Assembly (NCBI GenBank): GCA_965178635.1
Contig: CBCXVT010000020.1
Location: 2,991-66,990, forward strand
Reading direction: 5' to 3'
DNA: 64,000 nucleotides
Source of the DNA: Flavobacteriaceae bacterium
GTDB lineage: Bacteria; Bacteroidota; Bacteroidia; Flavobacteriales; Flavobacteriaceae
Under the pieces are notes generated by a model. It did not search any database and was not told the origin of the DNA. It saw only the letters and a program-made list of their open reading frames with translations. Made by a program: the position numbers and the translations under genes. Of this stretch, positions 48,280 to 64,000 are shown in pieces (the stretch's first letter is position 1; each line of letters opens with the position of its first letter).

Positions 48280-48984
48280 ATGGAACAAGCACAAAAGAAA
48301 ATTTTATTAGTAGAGGATGATCCAAATTTTGGGTCAGTGTTAAAAGATTATTTATCTTTAAACGATTATGATGTTACTCTTGCAAAAAACGGTATGGAGG
48401 GCTTCGAGAAGTTTAAAAAAGATAATTATCATCTATGTATTTTAGATGTGATGATGCCATATAAGGACGGATTCACATTAGCTAAAGAAATTAGAGAACG
48501 TAATAAAGAAGTGCCAATTATTTTCTTAACAGCTAAAGCCATGAAAGAAGATGTTCTAAAAGGGTATAAGGTTGGTGCAGATGATTATTTAAACAAACCA
48601 TTTGATTCAGAAGTATTGTTGATGAAAATTAATGCCATCATGCTTAGAAAGGTAAAAGACTCTATTGCAGATAGTGCCACATTTGAATTTAAAATTGGAA
48701 GTTTTGATCTAAACTCTAAACTCCGATTCTTATCTCATAACGGAGAAGAACCAGTGAAGTTATCGCCAAAAGAGAATGAGTTATTACGTTTGTTGGCTTT
48801 ACATGAAAATGATTTAATGCCAAGAGAATTAGCATTAACAAAAATATGGCGAGATGATAATTATTTCACCTCTCGTTCTATGGATGTGTATATTGCTAAG
48901 CTACGTAAATACCTGAAAAAAGATGAAAAAGTTGAAATTTTAAACATTCACGGCGAAGGTTTTAGGCTAGTAATAAATAGTTAG
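48280..48984 (+). CDS. OmpR/PhoB-family response regulator
   Basis: Receiver domain (LLVEDD, ILDVMMP, K at LTAK) plus a winged-helix C-terminus. Confidence 0.85.
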   Translation: MEQAQKKILLVEDDPNFGSVLKDYLSLNDYDVTLAKNGMEGFEKFKKDNYHLCILDVMMPYKDGFTLAKEIRERNKEVPIIFLTAKAMKEDVLKGYKVGADDYLNKPFDSEVLLMKINAIMLRKVKDSIADSATFEFKIGSFDLNSKLRFLSHNGEEPVKLSPKENELLRLLALHENDLMPRELALTKIWRDDNYFTSRSMDVYIAKLRKYLKKDEKVEILNIHGEGFRLVINS

Positions 48985-54155: not shown

Positions 54156-54608
54156 TTACTCTATATCTCTTATTAATTGCATCACCACTCCTAAACACAT
54201 TAAGGTGTCTTCTTCTTTAATTTCTATATTATTGAAGTCCTTATTATCAGCAATTAGTATTTCTTTATTTTTATCGAATCGTTTGACGGTAAATTCAGTG
54301 TTGTTTAAGGATATGATGCCTATTTTATTATCGTCTAAATTAACATCTGTACGCACTACTAGTATGTCGCCAACATGTAAGGTCGGATACATGGAATCGC
54401 CTTTTACACGGACTATGTATGTGCTGTTTGGTTTGGATAAGTACTTTTCATCTAAGCTTAGTTTTTGTTCTTTAAAATCGTCTGCAGGAGACGGAAACCC
54501 TGCTTGTACGCCATCTTCAAAATAGTTTACAACGATGCCTTCCTCACTAATCCTAAACGGCAAGTTTTCTATTTCACTTCCGAACTGTGGTACTTTCACT
54601 ATTTTCAT
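54156..54608 (-). CDS. umuD: UmuD/LexA-like S24 peptidase
   Basis: VKGDSMYPTLHVGDILVV (Ser nucleophile) and ..FTVKRF.. (Lys). 150 aa. Confidence 0.75.
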   Translation of the reverse strand: MKIVKVPQFGSEIENLPFRISEEGIVVNYFEDGVQAGFPSPADDFKEQKLSLDEKYLSKPNSTYIVRVKGDSMYPTLHVGDILVVRTDVNLDDNKIGIISLNNTEFTVKRFDKNKEILIADNKDFNNIEIKEEDTLMCLGVVMQLIRDIE

Positions 54609-54654
54609 TCAACCTTGTTTTAACTATTAACCTTGTTCATTTTTTTCATTGATA

Positions 54655-54835
54655 AAAAAACGAACCAAAAAAATCTAGGCTTACGAACCTTTATTTAAAT
54701 TTATCGCTCAACACCTAAATTCCAGGAACTCGCTATTGATATTTAGGCTAAGATAGTTAAATCCGTTTAGCTCAAACAGCCTGAAATTTTACGGTGTCTT
54801 TACTTCAAATTTTACAATAAATTTTCGATAGGCCA
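54655..54835 (-). repeat. Solo, diverged relative of the 283-bp satellite unit
   Basis: Collinear matches to the reverse complement of the unit: aaaaaacgaaccaaaaaaatctaggcttacg vs aaaaaagaacccaaaaacgctaggctgacg, cctaaattccaggaactcgct vs cctaaatctgatgaactcgct, gctcaaacagc..ttttacgg vs gctcagacagc..ttttacgg. Both end in ..aggcc. Confidence 0.6.
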
Positions 54836-54938
54836 GTAAAAAATAAATTTATTAAAATCCCCCCTTTAAGTTCAAAATAGATTCAAAACTAATATATAAA
54901 GGCCTTTATAACAACATTTAGGACTCTATTGATTTTCA

Positions 54939-56197
54939 TTAGTCTACTTCTAATAATTCATTCCAATTGGTGGTGTAGCGTTTGGATAATTTCTCTTGAC
55001 GCATTTTCCAGGTTCTTCCTAAATCTTGACTTCCTAGTTTGATTTTACTCACGCCTAAGTTAGCATTTATTGTATCAATAGCTTTCATTAAATTAACGTG
55101 CTTGGGGTTTTCATTTACAAACAAATTGATCTGTTTAGCAGCTTGTGGTGTTATGCCGTTTATAATCACTCCTCCTTTTTTAAACTGATAGCCTTTTTTA
55201 TAAATAGTTAATAATGCTTTTATCGCATATTTGGACAAAGTAATACTTGATGAACTCGCATACGGTAAGGTAATGGTGATGCTCTTGTAATATTGTGGTT
55301 TGTCTTTTTTAAATCTATTAGTTAGAATGAAGACTGTTATTAGGTTACAATCTGATTTTTGTTTTCTTAACTTTTCAGCACATAGTACTGCATAGGTACT
55401 TATACGTTCTCGTAGTTCATTAATATCCGTTATGTCGTTTTTAAAACTCCTGGTAGTTGCTATTGATTTTTTAGTAGCCACCTCATCAAGGTCTAATCTT
55501 GATTTGCCTTCTAGTTCATGTTTTAAGCGTAATCCAACAACTGAAAATTCTCTTCTCACATAGGCTATCATGTAATTGGGTAAACTCAAAAGCTGTTTTA
55601 ACTCCAATTGCTCGAAGTTTTGCCGCTATTTTTCTACCGATACCCCAAACATCTTCTATTGCCAACCACTTTAAGGCTTTGATTCTCTTTCTCCTCGGTA
55701 TCAATTACATAAGAACCGTTAGTTTTTACAGGGAACTTCTTTGCTATACGGTTTGCTACTTTACACAATGCTTTTGTAGGCGCAAATCCTATACTTACTG
55801 GTATACCTACATTCTTATTTACGGTGTCTTTTATTGTAACTCCATATTCCTGAAGATTATAGTTCTTCAAAACCCTCAAACTTTAAAAAGGCTTCGTCAA
55901 TTGAATAGATTTCAATATCTGGTGTAAACTCTCTTAAGTTATTCATAACTCGATTACTCAAGTCACCATATAAAGCAAAATTAGATGAGAATACGTTTAC
56001 CTTATGTTTTGCTCAAATACTTGCTTGAATTTATGAGCAACTGCTCCCATAGGAACGTACTTTTTCACTTCATTAGAACGTGCAATTACACACCCATCAT
56101 TATTGGATAATACCACAATAGGTTTATCCTTTAACCAAGGTTGAAACAATCTTTCACAAGATGCATAGAAGTTATTACAATCAACAAGTGCAAACAT
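54939..56197 (-). pseudogene. umuC: Y-family DNA polymerase UmuC, fragmented into at least 4 frames
   Basis: N-terminal MFALVDCNNFYASCE...VVLSNNDGCVIARS. Later blocks (VWGIGRK.., little-finger region) lie in ORFs 55634-55879, 55516-55704 and 54939-55607. Confidence 0.8.
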
Positions 56198-56434
56198 GTT
56201 ACAAAGTTACCAAGAAAACGTATTGGTTTGTGTGTAGGAGGAAAGAGGATGTTAACAAATGTACTACTTGCTGACACTCAGTTTACTATACTGCCCTATG
56301 TTTTAAAGTTTAAGTTTTGTTATGAAATATATTACGTTTCCTGAAAAAAATAAACAATATAGTTGTAGCTTTACTTTTTACGTATATATAACACTAGTGT
56401 TTATACTATAGTTATCTACAATTTTTAAAAAAAA

Positions 56435-57778
56435 ATGGGGAAATATTTAATCAATGAAGTATTTAAAACAATTGGAACTCCTGGAGTTACATATGTTAAA
56501 AGAAATGATGGAGCATTTGAGTTTGAATTATCAAATAGCCTAAATATACCAGGAACTCTTTGTTTAATAACTGGACCTTCTAAAACAGGAAAAACTACTT
56601 TATATAAAAAAGTTATTTCAGAATTTAAAAAAATCCCTTTGACAATAAGGTGTAATGATGAAATGACCATAGAAGATGTCTGGAAAAATGCATTAGAAGA
56701 TGTTAATTTTGATCGTATTACCAAAGAAGCTGAAAAGGGTCAAGTTGAACTTTCAACTCAAGTTAAAACTGGAATCAATGCTGGATGGGAATGGTTAGGG
56801 AAAATAATTGGAGAAATTAGCCTTGGCCTGAAAGGAACATATTCAAGCGAAACTGTTCGTGAAAAAGTTCTTTCATCTCCTAGCCCAAAGCATTTAATAC
56901 CCATTCTAAATGAACTTCCTTATGTTCTTGTAGTTGAAGACTTTCATTATTTAAGTGATTCCACAAAAAAAAGCTTATTTCAACAATGGAAAGATTTCAC
57001 CGATAGCGAAGTATCCACTATAATTGTTGGAACAGCTCATCATGCTATTGATTTAGCATTATCAAATAAAGACTTAGTTGGTAGAATTTCACATATCGAA
57101 GTTGGTACATGGGAAACTAATGACCTCAAAAAAATCATCAAACAAGGATTAGATGAATTAAAAATTAAATTAACCGAACCTCAGTTTCGACTTATCGCTT
57201 CAGAATCTGTTGGATTACCATTGATTACACAGGCTATTTGCGGAAGGTTGTTTTTTGATAAAAAAATAACCACTTATAACACCAGAGATAAGATTGTTTT
57301 CGATAAAAAAAGCATTGAAACGGCAATGACCAACGTGGCGAATCAGAATTTTAACATTTTTAAAGACCTCTATCAAATCTTAATAACAGGTTTTAGAAAA
57401 GGGGCAAGAAAATACAACACCTATGAGTTGTTATTATTAATATTTACTTTAGATCCAGTCACTTTTAAATTAAATCGAAGCGAGATTGATAAGAGATTAG
57501 ATAGATTGGACTCTAAATTTGAAAAGCCTCCGGTTCCATCAGTAAATAGTACTCTTGCAGCCGTTGGTAAACTTCAAAAAAGAAATGGAATTGAGTTAAT
57601 GGAATGGTCCAGTAAACAGGGGTGTTTATATATTCTAGAGCCTTCTTTTTTATATTATCTAAGGTGGAAAGATATAAATGTTGGCATCACAAAAAAGACG
57701 GATTTATTAGCAAAGCTTTATGAAATAATTACTTCAGATGTAAATATTAAAATAAAAAAAGTAGATAACAATATCTAA
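56435..57778 (+). CDS. P-loop NTPase (AAA/ORC-like ATPase with a probable C-terminal winged helix)
   Basis: Walker A ITGPSKTGKTT and Walker B VLVVEDFH. 447 aa. Confidence 0.65.
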   Translation: MGKYLINEVFKTIGTPGVTYVKRNDGAFEFELSNSLNIPGTLCLITGPSKTGKTTLYKKVISEFKKIPLTIRCNDEMTIEDVWKNALEDVNFDRITKEAEKGQVELSTQVKTGINAGWEWLGKIIGEISLGLKGTYSSETVREKVLSSPSPKHLIPILNELPYVLVVEDFHYLSDSTKKSLFQQWKDFTDSEVSTIIVGTAHHAIDLALSNKDLVGRISHIEVGTWETNDLKKIIKQGLDELKIKLTEPQFRLIASESVGLPLITQAICGRLFFDKKITTYNTRDKIVFDKKSIETAMTNVANQNFNIFKDLYQILITGFRKGARKYNTYELLLLIFTLDPVTFKLNRSEIDKRLDRLDSKFEKPPVPSVNSTLAAVGKLQKRNGIELMEWSSKQGCLYILEPSFLYYLRWKDINVGITKKTDLLAKLYEIITSDVNIKIKKVDNNI

Positions 57779-57850
57779 ACTGCATTAAAACGCAGTTTAG
57801 ATGAACCGTTGCACGTAATAGAATCACAACAATCTAAATTAAATATTTCA

Positions 57851-58474
57851 ATGAACAAATCATTTTTTTTTATCTTCTTTTTATTCGGAATTTCAAACAC
57901 ATATAGTCAAGATACTATATATGTAAAAAATGAAAAAGAACCTATTATTTCAAAAATTATAGAAATCAACTCTTCCGAAGTTAAATATAAAAAATTCAAT
58001 TACCAAGATGGAGCTTTATTTATAATTGAGAAAAATGAAATTGAAAGAATAAATTTCAAAAATGGAGACACTCAAACTTTCATAAAAAAAAATGAAAGTC
58101 AAGAAAGTAAAAGTTTAATTGCGAATTCAAAAATCTATCTGCAATATTCAACCACAGAAAAGAAAAAAAATGTAGAAAAAATTGATGCACTAAATATATT
58201 GAGAAGAGAGATAAATAATTTAGCAAGTTGTAAAATTGTGAACTCAATCGATGATGCAGATTTTGTTATTGAAATTCAAGCTACAAAATATATGATAACG
58301 AAAAGAAGAGTTAAACTAAAAGTAATCCATCTTTTAACTAAAGAGAATATATTTGAATCTGAATGGGAAAAGGGTGCACCAAGTGAGTTTAATGGATTTT
58401 CTGGAACAAGGCAAGCTACTGGAAGAGTGATAAAAAGACAATTATTATATGCTTTCCCTGAAATTGTAAAATAA
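57851..58474 (+). CDS. Cassette ORF 1: exported protein of unknown function
   Basis: Signal peptide MNKSFFFIFFLFGISNTYSQ. The ATG at 57851 is preferred over the TTG track start. Confidence 0.5.
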   Translation: MNKSFFFIFFLFGISNTYSQDTIYVKNEKEPIISKIIEINSSEVKYKKFNYQDGALFIIEKNEIERINFKNGDTQTFIKKNESQESKSLIANSKIYLQYSTTEKKKNVEKIDALNILRREINNLASCKIVNSIDDADFVIEIQATKYMITKRRVKLKVIHLLTKENIFESEWEKGAPSEFNGFSGTRQATGRVIKRQLLYAFPEIVK

Positions 58475-58627
58475 TTAAAAAACTACTACGTGCAACAATG
58501 CATATATTTTATTGCTAGGTTATAGCCAGCTTAAGAAAGTCCTCGCGGACTTTCTATCTGTGATTTATTTGCTAAATTTAGTGCTTAAACACTCAACGAA
58601 ATCATACACAAACACGTTGCCATTAAT
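58475..58627 (+). repeat. Inter-cassette repeat R1
   Basis: Starts ..gtgCAACAATG, has a central perfect hairpin agaaagtcc-tcgc-ggactttct and the core ttatttgctaaatttagtgcttaaaca, and ends acacGTTGcc. Confidence 0.75.
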
Positions 58628-58633
58628 TTGAAA

Positions 58634-59164
58634 ATGAATAAAACCACGAAAAAAATAATAGCAAAAGAATTCCTCTTCTTATTAGGAACAACAATTTTAT
58701 TTTTTGTCATGCTTTTTGCTTGGATTTCATTAATCGACTCTAATTATAATAAGCGAAATGAAATTAGAACAGAGATTGAAAAGTTTAAAAAAAATAATCA
58801 ATCCGAAAACAATGAGCTTTTGAAATTAGTTTATAGTAAACTAAAAACAGAAGCATCTTATGATGAATTTGTATCTGATTTTAAAGAGTCTTCGGAATTA
58901 CAAAAACTTTCTTACAGTAAATTAGAAACTGAAGCGAATTTTCAAACTTTCGTAAGGGATGCTTTAGGAGAAATTGAAATCGAAAAAAGTAATGAATTAA
59001 AAGTATTGAAAAAAAAATTGGATAAGACAGAGAAATCAATTTTTAACGATAGCGTTAGTGAAGATGAAGTATTCGGACTTGGAGTAACTTTATTTTTTAT
59101 CTTTTTTGTTTTTCGTTATCTGATTTACACAACAAAATGGAGTATAAAACAGCTAAAACAATAA
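58634..59164 (+). CDS. Cassette ORF 2: membrane-anchored coiled-coil-like protein
   Basis: N-terminal and C-terminal TM segments, with an internal near-duplicate (LVYSKLKTEASYDEFVSDF and LSYSKLETEANFQTFVRDA). Confidence 0.45.
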   Translation: MNKTTKKIIAKEFLFLLGTTILFFVMLFAWISLIDSNYNKRNEIRTEIEKFKKNNQSENNELLKLVYSKLKTEASYDEFVSDFKESSELQKLSYSKLETEANFQTFVRDALGEIEIEKSNELKVLKKKLDKTEKSIFNDSVSEDEVFGLGVTLFFIFFVFRYLIYTTKWSIKQLKQ

Positions 59165-59310
59165 AAACTAATGTCAACAATGGCTATAAGTAATTACAGG
59201 TTCTCGCCAACTTCTAAAAACATTCGCGGATTTTCTATTCGGTTTTTATTTGCTAAATTAGGTGCTTAAACATGCAACAAAACATATACGAACACGTTGT
59301 GTAGCATTAA
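59165..59310 (+). repeat. Inter-cassette repeat R2
   Basis: Nearly identical to R3 over about 98 nt (CAACAATGGCTATAAGTAATT...GGTGCTTAAA). Ends acacGTTGtg. Confidence 0.8.
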
Positions 59311-59320
59311 AACCAAACGT

Positions 59321-59689
59321 ATGAAAAAAATATTTTTAACTGTAATTGGAATAGTCGTTTTGACTTCATTTACAAACAAAACTGAAATAAGTGATGAATG
59401 TGATGTCGCTGAATTTTATAAAGCTGTTGAACCTGAAAGTGATGTAAAAGTTCTAACAACTTCAGGAGATTTACAAGAAGCTGAATTAATTTTAGTGCCA
59501 ACCAAAATGGAAGAGGGTACTTTTAAAATTGAAGTCACAAGAAAAGGGAGTAATATCTATAAAGTTGAAGGAACTAACTACTATATTGAAACACGATATT
59601 GCTATGAATACGCTACTTATGATGAGGCAATACTAAAAGTAGAAAGCAATTATGGATACGACAAAGGAACAATAATATTTAACCCATAA
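59321..59689 (+). CDS. Cassette ORF 3a: small exported protein
   Basis: Signal peptide MKKIFLTVIGIVVLTSF. Only 11 nt separate it from the next ORF, with no repeat between them. Confidence 0.45.
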   Translation: MKKIFLTVIGIVVLTSFTNKTEISDECDVAEFYKAVEPESDVKVLTTSGDLQEAELILVPTKMEEGTFKIEVTRKGSNIYKVEGTNYYIETRYCYEYATYDEAILKVESNYGYDKGTIIFNP

Positions 59690-59700
59690 TAAAATTATAA

Positions 59701-60690
59701 ATGACAAATAAATACATATTATTAATATTAACCTTAATACCTTTTTTCACTTTTAGCCAAACTGCTAAAGAGATTGCAAAAAACTGTTTACCATCCACAG
59801 TTTCATTGGTTATGGAAGATAAATCTAAACAACCTGTCTCTTTAGGCTCTGGTTTTGTATTAGAAAACGGAAAAGTTGTAACAAATTTACACGTAATTGA
59901 AGGAGCTAAATATGGATATATACTCGAAAATGGAAGTTCTAAAAAACATTCAATCAAAGGTTACTACCAAATAGACAAAATAAATGATTTAGCAATACTT
60001 TCCGTTCCAACATTAACTGCCCAACCTTTAGCTATTTCAAATTTAGACAAACCTGATGTTGGAGAAAAAATTTATGCGATTGGAAACCCTAAAGGGCTTT
60101 CAGGTACAATTTCTGAAGGAATTGTAAGTGGAATCCGCTCAATGGAAAACAAATCACTAATACAGATTACTGCACCAATTTCACCAGGTAGTAGTGGAGG
60201 ACCTGTAATAAACAATAAAGGAGAAGTAATTGGAGTAGCTGTAGGAACATTAACTTCTGGTCAGAATCTAAACTTTGCAATACCTGTGAATTTATTAACG
60301 AATCTTGCAAACAAAGGAACTTCATCTATAACTTCATTAAATATATCAAAAGGTGCGACTACACCAAAAACAAATAAAGATGAAATAGATGTTAAAGATG
60401 GCGTGATAGTTAGAAATTTATCTTGGGGTTGTTTTTTTGACTTTAGTTATAACTTTTCTATTAAGAACAATCTACCTTCAACTATTAGTGACGTAAGAGT
60501 ATTAATTTTAGTTTATGATTTAACAGGTACAATCATAAATTATTCAGAAAAAACATATTTCAGATATGATGAAATTAAACCATTTTTAGCTAAAACTATA
60601 GAATGTGTAAGCACTGAATTTAAGGATAGTTATAAAAAAGGTTATAAAATAAAGGCTAGAATATTAGATTTTAAAATACAAGACGAATAA
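59701..60690 (+). CDS. Cassette ORF 3b: trypsin-like (S1C/DegP-type) serine protease without PDZ domain
   Basis: Catalytic triad context: VVTNLHV (His), NDLAIL (Asp), SPGSSGGPV (Ser). Has a signal peptide. Confidence 0.75.
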   Translation: MTNKYILLILTLIPFFTFSQTAKEIAKNCLPSTVSLVMEDKSKQPVSLGSGFVLENGKVVTNLHVIEGAKYGYILENGSSKKHSIKGYYQIDKINDLAILSVPTLTAQPLAISNLDKPDVGEKIYAIGNPKGLSGTISEGIVSGIRSMENKSLIQITAPISPGSSGGPVINNKGEVIGVAVGTLTSGQNLNFAIPVNLLTNLANKGTSSITSLNISKGATTPKTNKDEIDVKDGVIVRNLSWGCFFDFSYNFSIKNNLPSTISDVRVLILVYDLTGTIINYSEKTYFRYDEIKPFLAKTIECVSTEFKDSYKKGYKIKARILDFKIQDE

Positions 60691-60849
60691 ATAACTCTAC
60701 ACAACAATGGCTATAAGTAATTGCTTGTTCTCGCCAACTTCTAAAAACATTCGCAGATTTTCTATTCGGCTTTTATTTGTTAAATTAGGTGCTTAAAACA
60801 CGCCACTAATCAAACACAAAACTGTTAGTAATAATAAACTCTCTTTAAA
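60691..60849 (+). repeat. Inter-cassette repeat R3
   Basis: See R2. Ends aactGTTAgt. Confidence 0.8.
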
Positions 60850-61269
60850 ATGAAAAACACAATTTTCACCATATTGTTCCTCTTGACTTTAAATTTAAAT
60901 GCTCAGCAAAACATTTTTGGAGTACCACAAAATAGTGCTACAACACAGAATAAAATGAATCTAGCTCAAAAAAATATTAATCAAGCTTATAAGGCATACT
61001 TTGAAGGAAATATTGAAAAGGCAAAATATTTCATTGACCAATCACAAGAACATGGTTTTAAAAGTGGGGACTTTTATTTCCTTTTAGGAGCATATATGTA
61101 TCGGACTGAAGAGTTTAAAGCAGCCAAAAGGTATTGGAAAATTTCACATAAAGAGGGTGGATGTTGGGAATGCAAAGAATACTTAGAAAAATTAAAAAAC
61201 AACATGCCTGTAGAAAGTTTAATTATGGACAAAGTCAAACTCTACTTATCAGAGTTGAATAAAAAATAA
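60850..61269 (+). CDS. Cassette ORF 4: exported TPR-like small protein
   Basis: Signal peptide MKNTIFTILFLLTLNLNAQ and helical-repeat-like sequence. Confidence 0.45.
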   Translation: MKNTIFTILFLLTLNLNAQQNIFGVPQNSATTQNKMNLAQKNINQAYKAYFEGNIEKAKYFIDQSQEHGFKSGDFYFLLGAYMYRTEEFKAAKRYWKISHKEGGCWECKEYLEKLKNNMPVESLIMDKVKLYLSELNKK

Positions 61270-61457
61270 ACGATTACCAACACCGCATAAAATTAATTAC
61301 TAGTTTTAGCCTACTTACGAAAATACTCGTGGATTTTCAGTTTGGTGCGTACTTGCAAAGTTTAGTGCAAAACCACGCAACTACTCATAGCCGAGACCGT
61401 AAGCAAACATTAAAAAACTCATTTCTAAAATAAAAAAAAGAAATTAATCTAATTCAT
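61270..61457 (+). repeat. Inter-cassette repeat R4 (diverged)
   Basis: Same layout as R1-R3: accCAACACCG start, central hairpin gaaaat-actcgtgg-attttc, then ..gtttagtgcaaaacca.., then ..accGTAAgc. Confidence 0.55.
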
Positions 61458-61925
61458 ATGAAAACTACAACTTTAATTATCTTCTTCCTATTCTTTAATA
61501 TTACATTTTCACAGTCTTTAGATGAGACTATTGGTTGGATTGGCCAAAATACAGATGGTCGTGAACAAGTTTATTACGACAAAGAAAACCATAAACTATC
61601 TATTAACTCAGTTAGACAAGCTCATAACTCATTAACTGTTTTTGTAAAAGAAATTGATCCAAATAGTATTAGTAGCATAGGAATTTTAAATGGTCAAGGT
61701 GGTTGGAATTCAGTTGTCTTAAATTTCAAGAATGGCTATGGAAATGTAACACGTTATATGAGAGACGAAAATTTTGAAATAACTGGTAATAAAACAAATG
61801 GTGATATGGCATATTTAAATATTAAAGTTCAATGCGACTATGATAAAATATTAAAACTAAAAAAGGCATTCTTACATCTGTTTAAAACAATAGGTGTTCA
61901 AGTTAAAGATGGAGATTTATTTTAA
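61458..61925 (+). CDS. Cassette ORF 5: exported protein of unknown function
   Basis: Signal peptide MKTTTLIIFFLFFNITFSQ. Confidence 0.45.
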   Translation: MKTTTLIIFFLFFNITFSQSLDETIGWIGQNTDGREQVYYDKENHKLSINSVRQAHNSLTVFVKEIDPNSISSIGILNGQGGWNSVVLNFKNGYGNVTRYMRDENFEITGNKTNGDMAYLNIKVQCDYDKILKLKKAFLHLFKTIGVQVKDGDLF

Positions 61926-61941
61926 TTTACCTAATAATTAA

Positions 61942-62317
61942 ATGGAAATAATTGGTTTTATAAGTATAGGTATTGTTGCTCTTTTCTTTTTTTTAATACT
62001 ATCAAATAATTAAAAAAAAAATATTAGGGATTTTATTAGTTTTAGTCTTTATTATTAGGCAATGTAACTTACATAATTCTGATAAAAATGGTGTAACTAT
62101 TGAACAAAAGGTAAAGCCAATTAATAACAGTTCTTCCATACAAGAAATAAAACTCCCAAAATATAATCACAAGCTAAATTACAAAGAAAAAGATACTTAT
62201 ATCCAAAAAAGAAGCAATGGATATTCAAGAACATATTATAGAGGGCCTAGAGGAGGATGCTATTATATAAACTCAAATGGTAATAAAACTTACGTTGATA
62301 GAAGTTTATGCAATTGA
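61942..62317 (+). pseudogene. Small membrane protein with C-terminal GPRGG-CYY-x-NGNKTYV motif, interrupted at an A10 run
   Basis: MEIIGFISIGIVALFFFLILSNN stops at 62011-62013. The +1 frame then continues ILGILLVLVFII...RGPRGGCYYINSNGNKTYVDRSLCN to 62317. Confidence 0.4.
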
Positions 62318-62410
62318 AAGTATGAAAAAATATTTGCTAACAACACCTAAAAATAATATGGAGTTGGCTTAACTTAAAAAGGGTCTAAAATTTAAATGGT
62401 TGTTGATTTA

Positions 62411-62809
62411 TTACAACTCTTTGAGTTCACCGGAAGCTGCTTCATCAAAATGATTTAAAAGGTAAAGTGGATCTTTATCTTCTATAATTTGCCAAGCTTC
62501 AGAGCTGTATTCATATTCAAAAACCATAGCTTCATTAGTATTGTTTACTACAATTTGTAACCTGTCTTTTTCGTTAAACGTTATAGGTTTGTCAAAACAA
62601 TTTGCTTTTGTAAGTGCCTTGGAAATTTTAATTCTATTTTCGTAATAGTTGGGTAAGAATTCATCGTAAGGTATTTGTACTTCTCCAATAAATTCTAATT
62701 TTTTGTGTTTGTTATATCTGTTTAACACCCAATAATGCTTGAGTTCTTCAAGGTCTGTGTTTTCATCAACACAGCTACACAGTTTTATATGATCTGATAT
62801 TTTGCACAT
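62411..62809 (-). CDS. Hypothetical 132-aa protein downstream of mcrC
   Basis: Intact ORF, 70 nt after the mcrC stop on the same strand. No recognised motif. Confidence 0.4.
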   Translation of the reverse strand: MCKISDHIKLCSCVDENTDLEELKHYWVLNRYNKHKKLEFIGEVQIPYDEFLPNYYENRIKISKALTKANCFDKPITFNEKDRLQIVVNNTNEAMVFEYEYSSEAWQIIEDKDPLYLLNHFDEAASGELKEL

Positions 62810-62879
62810 GCTTTTAGTTTTTTATTAAATAGACCTGTAATGGGATTTGTTATATAGAATGTTTTTATGTTTTGTTTTC

Positions 62880-64000
62880 TTACAACTCAGGCAATTTAAT
62901 TCCGTATTTGTAGAACATTACATATTTTTCAAATGGATATTTCCTTAAACTTTCTTTATCTAATTCAACACCATTTTTTTGATCAGGATATATCACTAAA
63001 CATTCTAGCACTTTACTATAATCGGATTCATTTAATTCATCATACATTTTCTTCATTCTTGCATATCCGCTAATTTGACGCGCATCATCCATTGATAGAC
63101 CATTAGATGCGTAACGTGGTTTGTATTTAGCATCTATAACCATTTTAAAACCTTGCTTATTTAACACAAAATCTGGTTCTTGTCTATTGATCGTTACATG
63201 ATATTTTACTTCATTTTTTAATGGAAATACTTCTCGTAGTTTTTTATACACATACAACTCAAACAACTTGGTCATATCAATCCAAAATGGTGGTGTTTTA
63301 AATTGCTGTTCACTCGTCTTACTAATGGTGTAGTTATAGCGTTTTAAAATAATTTTAGCCAGTTTTATAGCGTGCGTGTATTCTTTGAAGAGTGGGTTAG
63401 GCTTTGTGTTTTTTACTAATCTGATGTCTATATTCTGATCTACATTATCAAATGCAGGCTTCACATAATTAAATACATGTTTTAAATCTATGGTATTACA
63501 ACCATTAAGATTATTTAAAGCGGATTGCGTAAACAACAATGCTTTTTTTAAGATTCTATTTTCTACAGAATTATATCCAAATTCTTCAAATGTACATACG
63601 TTATGCAACATTTTTTGATGAGAATGGTTTTGTTTAATGGTTGCATTGACCAATACTTTACCTTTTACTCGAGCGTTTAAATTTTTAGTGACTTTATAGT
63701 ACGATTTCTTTAATCCTTTGCGTACTATTTGTTTCATTACTTGTAAGAACTCAACAAATAAGAATGGGGTTAATATATCTTGTTGTTGATTAATAGGTAT
63801 CAGAGGTGCTTTAAAATCTATTGTATATAAATCATTTAGATGTTTGAAGTTTTCAGGTTCTTGTAAAGCTTCAAATAGCATTCCTAAATAATCTATTTGT
63901 ATGGCCTCTTTATTGATTTTTGGCTGAACATAAATTGATAACTCCTTATTTACTATCCAATCAATACCTATCATGTAGGAAGTGTCGATTTTATAATCTT
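62880..64000 (-). CDS. mcrC: McrC-like subunit of a McrBC-type modification-dependent restriction system (5' end probably outside window)
   Basis: LFELYVYKKL...EPDFVL...MVIDAKYK...DARQISGY matches the PD-(D/E)xK core of McrC. The frame stays open upstream of the first Met, up to the window edge. Confidence 0.65.
   Translation of the reverse strand, partial: DYKIDTSYMIGIDWIVNKELSIYVQPKINKEAIQIDYLGMLFEALQEPENFKHLNDLYTIDFKAPLIPINQQQDILTPFLFVEFLQVMKQIVRKGLKKSYYKVTKNLNARVKGKVLVNATIKQNHSHQKMLHNVCTFEEFGYNSVENRILKKALLFTQSALNNLNGCNTIDLKHVFNYVKPAFDNVDQNIDIRLVKNTKPNPLFKEYTHAIKLAKIILKRYNYTISKTSEQQFKTPPFWIDMTKLFELYVYKKLREVFPLKNEVKYHVTINRQEPDFVLNKQGFKMVIDAKYKPRYASNGLSMDDARQISGYARMKKMYDELNESDYSKVLECLVIYPDQKNGVELDKESLRKYPFEKYVMFYKYGIKLPEL

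Follow-up and report, generated by a model that had tools for sequence, protein, structure and literature searches.

What kind of element is a row of co-oriented genes separated by copies of a structured repeat, with no recombinase in view? The question is raised by a 64,000-nt stretch of DNA from a Flavobacteriaceae bacterium (GenBank assembly GCA_965178635.1, contig CBCXVT010000020.1, positions 2,991 to 66,990 of the forward strand), which was analyzed at its full length and is referred to here as the window. The initial annotation of this DNA had described six plus-strand open reading frames (ORFs) in five units, each followed by a noncoding repeat (R1–R4), and had proposed either a cluster of attC-like sites lacking an integrase (CALIN) or an analogue of the recombinase-associated orphan immunity gene arrays of gut Bacteroidales (rAID-1). 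Integrons, the textbook device for gene capture, are defined by a single integrase clade and use folded bottom-strand attC sites, a crossover in GTT, and an attI entry site. To our knowledge, they are nearly absent from Bacteroidota. The results described here indicate that the region is probably a mobile cassette array of an integron-like gene-capture system in Flavobacteriaceae, and the evidence comes from the family of sites to which the repeat belongs, from the fold of these sites, from the boundaries of the cassettes, and from a recombinase gene at the head of related arrays.

The four large repeats of the window are co-oriented, as annotated, and were recovered both by a repeat search and by nhmmer (58493–58619, 59175–59299, 60702–60826, and 61278–61400; E-values of 1e-26 to 1e-30). 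R2 and R3 are near-identical (94% over 96 nt), and three of the repeats contain a common core; a 25-nt core is present in three copies, compared with zero expected from shuffled sequence, and is found nowhere else in the 64 kb. R4 had been thought to keep the layout of the repeat and not its sequence. It also keeps the sequence, with both R1 and R4 being 63–68% identical to R2 and R4 being matched by nhmmer at E = 2e-30.

The repeat, about 125 nt in length, belongs to a family with at least 650 copies in at least 243 public loci (designated by L numbers), nearly all of them in genomes of Flavobacteriaceae or in marine metagenomes. A metagenome set was assembled with a degenerate pattern that covers the left portion of the repeat, yielding at least 120 stretches, and a genome set with a second pattern on contigs from one genome per species; each was then subjected to a profile search. 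These searches found at least 322 copies in 123 metagenome loci and the window and at least 332 copies in 120 genome loci. Among the matches listed, the genome loci are almost all from Flavobacteriaceae, including Winogradskyella, Psychroserpens, Polaribacter, Algibacter, Maribacter, Tenacibaculum, Lacinutrix, Aequorivita, and others, with a few from metagenome-assembled genomes (MAGs) of other Bacteroidota. Repeats are also observed in L145, L171, and L200, short contigs from MAGs assigned to Nanoarchaeota, Algicola, and Arenicella, which are probably binning errors rather than a true extension of the host range. The longest array comprises 15 copies in 11.7 kb. Rather than being scattered without relation to ORFs, the repeats form co-oriented arrays in 243 of the 244 sources (the loci and the window), orientation being mixed in one. 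Relative to the repeat, in-array ORFs are found on the plus and minus strands in ratios of 282:6 in the metagenome set and 269:18 in the genome set. A site starts at a median of 12 nt past a stop codon and ends at a median of 29 nt before the next ATG.

The families to which the in-array ORFs belong are extremely diverse. In a set of 145 cassette proteins, 57 Pfam families are represented, each in at most three proteins, and an immunity family in one (CdiI_3); the proposed immunity-gene function was therefore not borne out, and the cassette proteins of the window matched no immunity family in Pfam or PADLOC. Cassette contents include ParE, ParD, Gp49, SocA, CdiI_3, MerB, a SUKH-like protein, and metabolic enzymes, as well as toxin-antitoxin modules, a DNA methylase module, a SIR2 protein, and an ATPase of the PDC-S59 type. 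The description of the cassettes as encoding exported proteins holds as a tendency and not as a rule, given that hydrophobic N-terminal segments occur in about half of the cassette proteins and in a third of flanking controls. The most recurrent cassette family is DUF6090 (N terminus MIKFFRKIRQNLL...), with 18 ORFs in 13 metagenome loci, including L024, L010, and L026.

An alignment of 243 distinct copies with 14-nt flanks shows that the starting CAAC and the ending GTTG are the most conserved positions of the site. The likeness of these ends to attC cores had been pointed out for the window, and it extends to the family: AAC and GTT are each present in ~99% of copies, the base preceding AAC is C or T, and the base following GTT is G or A, with the outer positions being cassette-specific. 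The consensus consists of AAAC-n6'-CAAC, Acc, and GtnTATAAtTaATTGC on the left, ~75 variable nt with a soft central hairpin in the middle, and GCAACtAatCATAnaC, aAaa.C, and GTTG-n6-ATT on the right.

The pairs with the highest mutual information fall in a single antiparallel register that joins the left arm with the right arm of the same site. Pair 24/128, for example, is AT in 90 copies, GC in 76, and CG in 65, and pair 30/122 is TA in 141, GC in 58, AT in 25, and CG in 7; pairs 32/120, 23/129, and 27/125 behave alike. The resulting arm helix comprises 16 bp and is seen in two independent sets. In the replication set of 283 independent genome copies, 81.8% of its pairs are Watson-Crick and 15.5% are A.C, compared with 19–33% Watson-Crick pairs in shifted registers, and seven variable pairs are paired in 94% of cases as opposed to 59% with shuffled partners. 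The central hairpin emphasized in the initial annotation does exist throughout the family, being paired in 58–93% of copies, but the conserved, covarying helix is the one that joins the two arms of the site.

The arm helix is asymmetric with respect to the two strands. Two of its pairs are invariantly A.C (in 228 and 239 of the 243 copies), and over the whole helix A.C is 40 times commoner than G.T (597 versus 15). Because these mismatches are A.C on the top strand, the helix is continuous, with G.T wobbles, only on the bottom strand, and the pattern of conservation points to the bottom strand as the one likely to fold. When a circular cassette junction was joined in silico, the bottom strand folded at −35.1 kcal/mol (z = −7.4) and the top strand at −28.5 kcal/mol, a difference of 6.6 kcal/mol. 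Short or unrelated hairpin sites ending in ...ATA(C/A)A..GTTG precede many cassettes and are missed by the 125-nt profile; such sites are observed in L113 (7441–7906) and upstream of the first family repeat in L110, L088, and L055. Arrays therefore mix site classes, and the family count underestimates the system.

What moves, if anything does, can be read from the sequences beyond the ends of the sites. The hexamer that follows the GTTG of one site and the hexamer that precedes CAAC in the next site are reverse complements, and the n6 repeats therefore flank the cassette and not the site. In 82% of 378 cassettes, at least five of the six positions match; this level is reached in 6% of cases when the two ends of a single site are compared and in 4% when pairs are drawn at random. 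The ends of each repeat had appeared to be only partly complementary because the 6 nt past GTTG are part of the cassette that follows. In 266 of 311 cases, the adjoining seventh nucleotide is A on the upstream side and G in the reverse complement of the downstream side, corresponding to G.T on the bottom strand.

Comparison of loci shows cassettes in different positions. L101 and L138 have in common a 908-bp unit at 100% identity, which is the first cassette in L101 and the second in L138, and the identity runs from the GTTG of the preceding site to the CGTTG of the unit's own site. The boundaries in L088/L090 and in L147/L188 are as in L101/L138, and those in L055/L228 (97%) and L059/L201 (96%) likewise lie within GTTG. 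Such boundaries correspond to the definition of an integron cassette and would place the crossover inside GTT(G). A crossover in mid-repeat, as might be read from model position 39, where L001 and the window part, was rejected, since the arms covary and cassettes end at GTTG.

At 11 loci (L101, L138, L137, L176, L166, L216, L231, L194, L177, L190, and L329), a gene for a Xer-like tyrosine recombinase of 370–400 residues (~375) is located directly 5' of the array and is co-oriented with it. L329 lies in the complete genome of Psychroserpens sp. Hel_I_66 (JUGU01000001.1, intact array at 1.760–1.771 Mb), in which the recombinase gene is followed by seven cassettes with exact n6 inverted repeats. 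The first GTTG-n6 is found 30–160 nt past the stop codon of the recombinase gene, and ahead of it stands a short hairpin or a CATATAAACAA-type sequence like the 3' end of sites; between the recombinase stop codon and the first cassette, L176 has AATAAACACACTAGTGTGTTTATT-CACTT-GTTG and L137 has GATAAACGCAATTGCGTTTATC-CAATT-GTTG. The recombinase contains an extra N-terminal domain of ~100 residues. It scores 153–200 bits against TIGR02249 (cut-off 265) and 91–136 bits against PRK15417 (cut-off 435). The alignment with VchIntIA (2a3v) falls into two pieces, between which IntI residues 178–248 (71 residues) face 28 residues; with ~43 fewer residues, the IntI-specific insertion is therefore absent. 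Among proteins of solved structure, the best sequence matches are to XerA proteins (4a8e, E = 3.5e-38; 5hxy, E = 5e-34). The recombinase family comprises 12,980 cluster representatives at E ≤ 1e-30 and includes proteins from Bacteroidales MAGs; a representative search, a cluster look-up, and a second homologue search brought up no named protein from a gut Bacteroides. In the window, tblastn with eight array-associated recombinases gave no match (all E > 0.3), and the earlier statement that no recombinase is in view thus holds for the array family.

The first cassette of L329 (11258–16419) is 5.2 kb long and contains four genes, for a helix-turn-helix protein, a C5 DNA methylase, a 741-residue HATPase_c_3 protein, and a 370-residue protein; its gene content resembles that of a restriction or defence system, which would be carried whole. 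In L103 (1–1330, oriented coordinates), a 299-residue Xer-like recombinase and the N terminus of an IS91-type zinc-finger transposase are encoded ~110 nt upstream of a repeat. This recombinase was considered as the array enzyme and rejected, being paired with the transposase in a separate element. At L328 (GCA_965284565.1, OZ260100.1), the gene of a full-length family member is flanked by operons for RND efflux and for an ABC transporter, and a single weak repeat match is found 6 kb downstream. A scan of viral contigs with the recombinase profile found 80 loci with generic integrases and one weak repeat match.

In the mechanism that we propose, a cassette consists of TTG-n6-ATT, one or several genes, AAC-n6'-CAAC, and a hairpin-forming site ending in CGTTG. 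When the cassette is circularized, its ends would meet to give one long imperfect hairpin. In this hairpin, n6'-CAAC and GTTG-n6 pair as the R box; next come a spacer that is unpaired and asymmetric, the L helix of 16 bp, in which the two invariant A.C positions are G.T on the bottom strand, and a variable centre. The Xer-like recombinase would cut and rejoin within the GTTG core, excising cassettes between two sites and inserting them at an attI-like site after its own gene. Like IntI, it would presumably act on the folded bottom strand, which would make its substrate single-stranded.

Several observations weigh against this mechanism. In 42 loci, the sequence upstream of the first family repeat extends for 3.5 kb or more, and only 7 of these show the recombinase; many of the arrays may contain sites of other types or have no recombinase gene beside them. 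It is the position of the gene that suggests the role of the enzyme. The full-length family member of L328 has no obvious array downstream. Some segments common to two loci end inside sites and not at GTTG, as does the switch that separates L001 from the window (model position 39), and homologous exchange between conserved sites therefore also occurs. In addition, the window sites folded alone as single-stranded DNA did not show an attC-like fold, R1 alone being more stable than shuffled sequences and the others having z near zero; this null result is misleading, those sites being hybrids, as described below. Finally, invariant G.T positions are commoner in RNA than in DNA structures, and the fold might have an antisense RNA role.

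Could the repeat be a shared RNA element only, that is, a terminator, a 3' untranslated region (UTR), or a 5' UTR with a promoter, with no role in DNA recombination? Its constant location on the sense strand, past the end of one gene and ahead of the start codon of the next, and the common occurrence of the central hairpin are what such an element would have. The sense strand, however, has A.C where the antisense strand has G.T (597 versus 15), and Rfam gave nothing relevant in the window at either gathering or permissive thresholds. A promoter in each repeat, as suggested in the initial annotation, is not observed either, the −7 motif TAnnTTTG occurring four times in 243 copies and at no fixed position. 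An RNA element would also leave the n6 repeats that span whole genes, the moved identical cassettes, and the linked recombinase unexplained, and we consider it very improbable. Selfish miniature elements spreading into intergenic regions, of the miniature inverted-repeat transposable element (MITE) or repetitive extragenic palindrome (REP) kind, would account for the high copy number and for the IS91-type element beside one copy (L103), but the remaining data contradict them, and they have the lowest probability of all. The copies are clustered in arrays and have the same orientation as the genes, and none is present in the other 58 kb of the window. Moreover, loci have in common a gene with its downstream site and not the repeat alone, and complementarity is seen between the hexamers that flank one cassette and not between those lying just outside the two ends of one repeat.

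The remaining alternatives are the two that the initial annotation had put forward, and each was partly right. A true integron remnant, or CALIN, would have canonical attC sites and an IntI encoded elsewhere in the genome. The YAAC/GTTR cores, the imperfect hairpin with bottom-strand bias, the boundaries that fit a crossover between G and TT, and the lack of a recombinase in the window are all in keeping with it, but we regard it as unlikely given that the recombinase of related arrays falls under the TIGR02249 and PRK15417 cut-offs, lacks the IntI-specific insertion, has its best structural relatives among XerA proteins, and is co-oriented with the cassettes instead of divergent. In the IntegronFinder surveys, the entries for Bacteroidetes were limited to In0 in 2016 and to a single complete integron, that of Salinibacter, in 2022; neither survey reported CALINs in Flavobacteriaceae or the arrays described here. 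Membership in rAID-1 is a more serious, if still doubtful, possibility. The cassettes would then be orphan immunity genes against contact-dependent toxins, with a homologue of the rAID recombinase encoded at the head, and consistent with this are the extension of the recombinase family to Bacteroidales MAGs, the N-terminal hydrophobic segment of half of the cassette proteins, and the presence of CdiI_3 and a SUKH-like protein among them. The content is nonetheless not dominated by immunity genes, no Pfam family occurring more than three times among the 145 proteins, and Ross et al. confine homologues of the rAID-1 recombinase that are >50% identical to Bacteroidales. An integron-like system with its own recombinase remains the reading that we prefer.

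How does the array in the window compare with this scheme? It comprises six co-oriented cassettes (56411–62405, +) with seven plus-strand genes (56435–61925). The six ORFs described initially were all present in the ORF list at their annotated positions, and the array starts one cassette earlier, at ~56411, with the gene of an AAA ATPase, giving six cassettes in place of five units. The window has six to seven sites without a recombinase of the array family, and no tRNA genes were found in it. The GC content of the array is 0.28–0.30, compared with 0.28–0.37 in 2-kb bins elsewhere in the window.

At the array head, an attI-like imperfect hairpin, ATAACACTAGTGTTTAT, can be read from the sequence (56388–56404, +); it is of the kind found after the recombinase gene in L176 and L137. 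It is followed by the first R'-type core, GTTA-TCTACA-ATT (56411–56423, +), which forms the 5' boundary of cassette 0 and has the GTTR-n6-ATT layout seen in 378 other cassette starts. Within this core, GTTATCTAC is the reverse complement of GTAGATAAC at 57761–57769, at the end of the ATPase gene. The gene of cassette 0 (56435–57778, +) encodes an AAA_22 ATPase of 447 residues (Pfam AAA_22, E = 2.7e-07), which is a full-length match to the PADLOC phage defence candidate PDC-S59 (E = 4.2e-43). The next site is a short attC-like site of 51 nt, GTAGATAAC-AAT-ATCTAAACTGC-loop-GCAGTTTAGAT-GAACC-GTTG (57761–57811, +), and the 30-nt stub noted earlier upstream of cassette 1 is part of this complete site. 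Its box order (R'', 3-nt spacer, L'', loop, L', 5-nt spacer, and R') is that of the 125-nt family. The inner stem consists of 11 perfect base pairs, and folded as single-stranded DNA the site has −11.1 kcal/mol on the bottom strand (z = −4.6) and −10.4 kcal/mol on the top strand (z = −4.0).

Cassette 1 contains a gene for a 207-residue protein with a signal-peptide-like N terminus (57851–58474, +) and with no Pfam match above the curated cut-off. It is flanked by GTTGCACGTAATAG (from 57808) and CTACTACGTGCAAC (58483–58496), which form an inverted repeat with 13/14 matches. Site R1 (58483–58619, +; nhmmer E = 3e-27) has its CAAC at 58493 and its GTTG at 58616–58619, and its arm helix contains 10 Watson-Crick pairs, 4 A.C pairs, and 2 mismatches. 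The ORF of cassette 2 (58634–59164, +) encodes 176 residues with transmembrane segments at both ends; the flanks of this cassette, GTTGCCATTAATTT and AAACTAATGTCAAC, match at 12/14 positions, and site R2 of the 125-nt family, a hybrid, follows at 59165–59299 (+; nhmmer E = 3e-28).

Cassette 3 (59321–60690, +) carries two genes between the flanks GTTGTGTAG and CTACACAAC (inverted repeat, 9/9): gene a for an exported protein of 122 residues (59321–59689, +) and gene b for a trypsin-like serine protease of 329 residues (59701–60690, +; Pfam Trypsin_2, E = 2.7e-27). The protease resembles the protease domain of RT-Protease_XI (E = 6e-24). Site R3, likewise a hybrid member of the 125-nt family, is located at 60691–60827 (+; nhmmer span 60702–60826). 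Cassette 4 has an ORF for 139 residues with a signal-peptide-like N terminus (60850–61269, +) and the flanks GTTAGTAAT and ATTACCAAC (8/9), and is followed by site R4 of the same family, with a degenerate R' core, GTAA (61270–61402, +; nhmmer E = 2e-30).

The ORF of cassette 5 (61458–61925, +) encodes 155 residues, again with a signal-peptide-like N terminus; the cassette extends to ~62340 and includes a 23-residue hydrophobic ORF (61942–62013). It is flanked by GTAAGCAAACAT (from 61399) and ATATTTGCTAACAAC (62330–62344). The tatttgctaa fragment at ~62333, previously taken for a possible decayed last repeat, does mark a terminal degenerate site (62330–62405, +), but it is the cassette-specific repeat partner and CAAC (62341–62344) rather than a decayed core. 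This site continues with a left-arm remnant, CAACACCTAAAAATAAT, which resembles the left arm of R4, CAACACCGCATAAAATTAAT, and has GTTG at 62399–62402; it is under the nhmmer threshold.

The window sites are not intact copies of the family fold. The arm helices of R1–R4 contain 2, 5, 5, and 4 true mismatches, whereas 188 of the 243 family copies contain none. Cassette 3 is found at 100% identity in metagenome contig L001, in which the next cassette differs. R3 equals the intact L001 site up to model position 39 and has an R2-like right part from there on, with 5 helix mismatches as opposed to 0 in the L001 version. Because of these mismatches and of the switch in R3 relative to L001, three of the four large window sites are left/right hybrids. 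The simplest origin for them is homologous recombination between sites, with loss of the intervening cassettes. With its recombinase lost and three of its four large sites hybrid, the array in the window is most likely an inactive fossil inside a strain-variable island.

The surroundings of the array vary among strains. A response-regulator gene occupies 48280–48984, and the DNA beyond 48985 differs among assemblies encoding an identical regulator (L324–L327), two of which are without an island, one of which has a 436-residue phage-type integrase, and one of which matches the window; the array is therefore located in an insertion hot spot or strain-variable island. With respect to cassette presence, one difference is already visible in samples ERZ650153 and ERZ928181. 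Between this gene and the array, on the minus strand (54156–56197), umuD (Peptidase_S24) is intact and umuC is split into at least three ORF fragments. The umuC pseudogene abuts the array head, in the position expected for a recombinase gene. At its other end, the array is met by convergent minus-strand genes (62411–63974), for a McrBC-family protein (E = 1.5e-33) and for a 132-residue ORF product without a family, and the window ends before the remainder of the restriction system.

If the proposed scheme is correct, integron logic (hairpin sites, a GTT crossover, and cassettes of any content) has been assembled around a different recombinase, in a system that is widespread in dominant marine polysaccharide degraders (at least 240 loci). 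The analysis provides a concrete model of site and crossover for the recombinase-associated arrays of this phylum, opens a large pool of cassettes that encode mostly proteins without known families together with some defence and toxin-antitoxin modules, and provides a natural point of comparison for the way in which tyrosine recombinases acquire folded single-stranded DNA as a substrate. A broader proposal, to which we give about even chances, is that marine Flavobacteriaceae, and probably other Bacteroidota including those with gut rAID-1, have a second, IntI-independent kind of integron, in which a Xer-like enzyme with an added N-terminal domain, acting on single-stranded hairpins with a GTTG core, captures and shuffles cassettes, defence systems among them. 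The integron mechanism would then have evolved convergently, or the system would represent a deep sister lineage, and the missing mechanism for rAID biogenesis would be supplied.

Similar to integrons, the system described here has cassettes that are co-oriented, contain a single gene in most cases, and vary widely in content, with toxin-antitoxin and defence genes among them; it also has an imperfect hairpin site with YAAC/GTTR cores of the RYYYAAC/GTTRRRY type, an unpaired spacer, an inner helix, and a variable centre, which is conserved in structure. The boundary lies inside GTT(G), in agreement with a crossover between G and TT, and what comes after GTT is part of the following cassette; the first cassette is received by a simple site beside the recombinase gene; and the sites have a bottom-strand bias, the bottom strand being the one that may be used in recombination. 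The main differences from integrons are the nature of the enzyme, which is Xer/XerA-like with a ~100-residue N-terminal domain, lacks the IntI insertion, and scores under the IntI cut-offs; the direction of its gene, which is that of the cassettes at 11 loci, whereas IntI is divergent; the complementary stretch, which comprises 6 nt and a fixed A/G position in place of the RRRY of GTTRRRY; and the strand bias, which is carried by invariant A.C/G.T positions.

A literature search for attC- or integron-like arrays in Flavobacteria or Bacteroidota found only the rAID-1 and polyimmunity papers. rAID-1 of gut Bacteroidales has a co-oriented XerD-like recombinase gene at its 5' end, whose product is by definition at least 44% identical to BF9343_RS08045 of B. 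fragilis, many short, co-directional, low-GC genes, and repetitive intergenic sequences, and Zhang et al. (2012) described polyimmunity loci next to XerC/D. The parts of these papers that were accessible contain no site structure, crossover point, or mechanism, and the biogenesis of rAID is called an open question in the accessible part of a 2025 publication. rAID-1 is from the same phylum, and its architecture matches that of the arrays described here, at least two co-directional low-GC genes with repetitive intergenic sequences being present in the window as well. The hosts differ, being marine Flavobacteriaceae in the present case, and so does the content, which is heterogeneous here and consists mostly of immunity genes in rAID-1; matches to immunity families number zero among the cassette proteins of the window and 1 of 145 across the family (CdiI_3). 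Xer/XerA resolvases, which act at dif, are the nearest proteins of solved structure by sequence, but they use one double-stranded dif per replicon and have neither the extra N-terminal domain nor a cassette array. The analogy with recombinase-associated arrays that was initially suggested is thus upheld by the n6 repeats, the breaks at GTTG, and the 5' recombinase, whereas a place in the integron family proper is not. Integrons and Bacteroidales rAID-1 are the closest known systems: the arrays appear to follow integron logic, with an enzyme that has neither the insertion nor the divergent gene of IntI, in an architecture that matches rAID-1.

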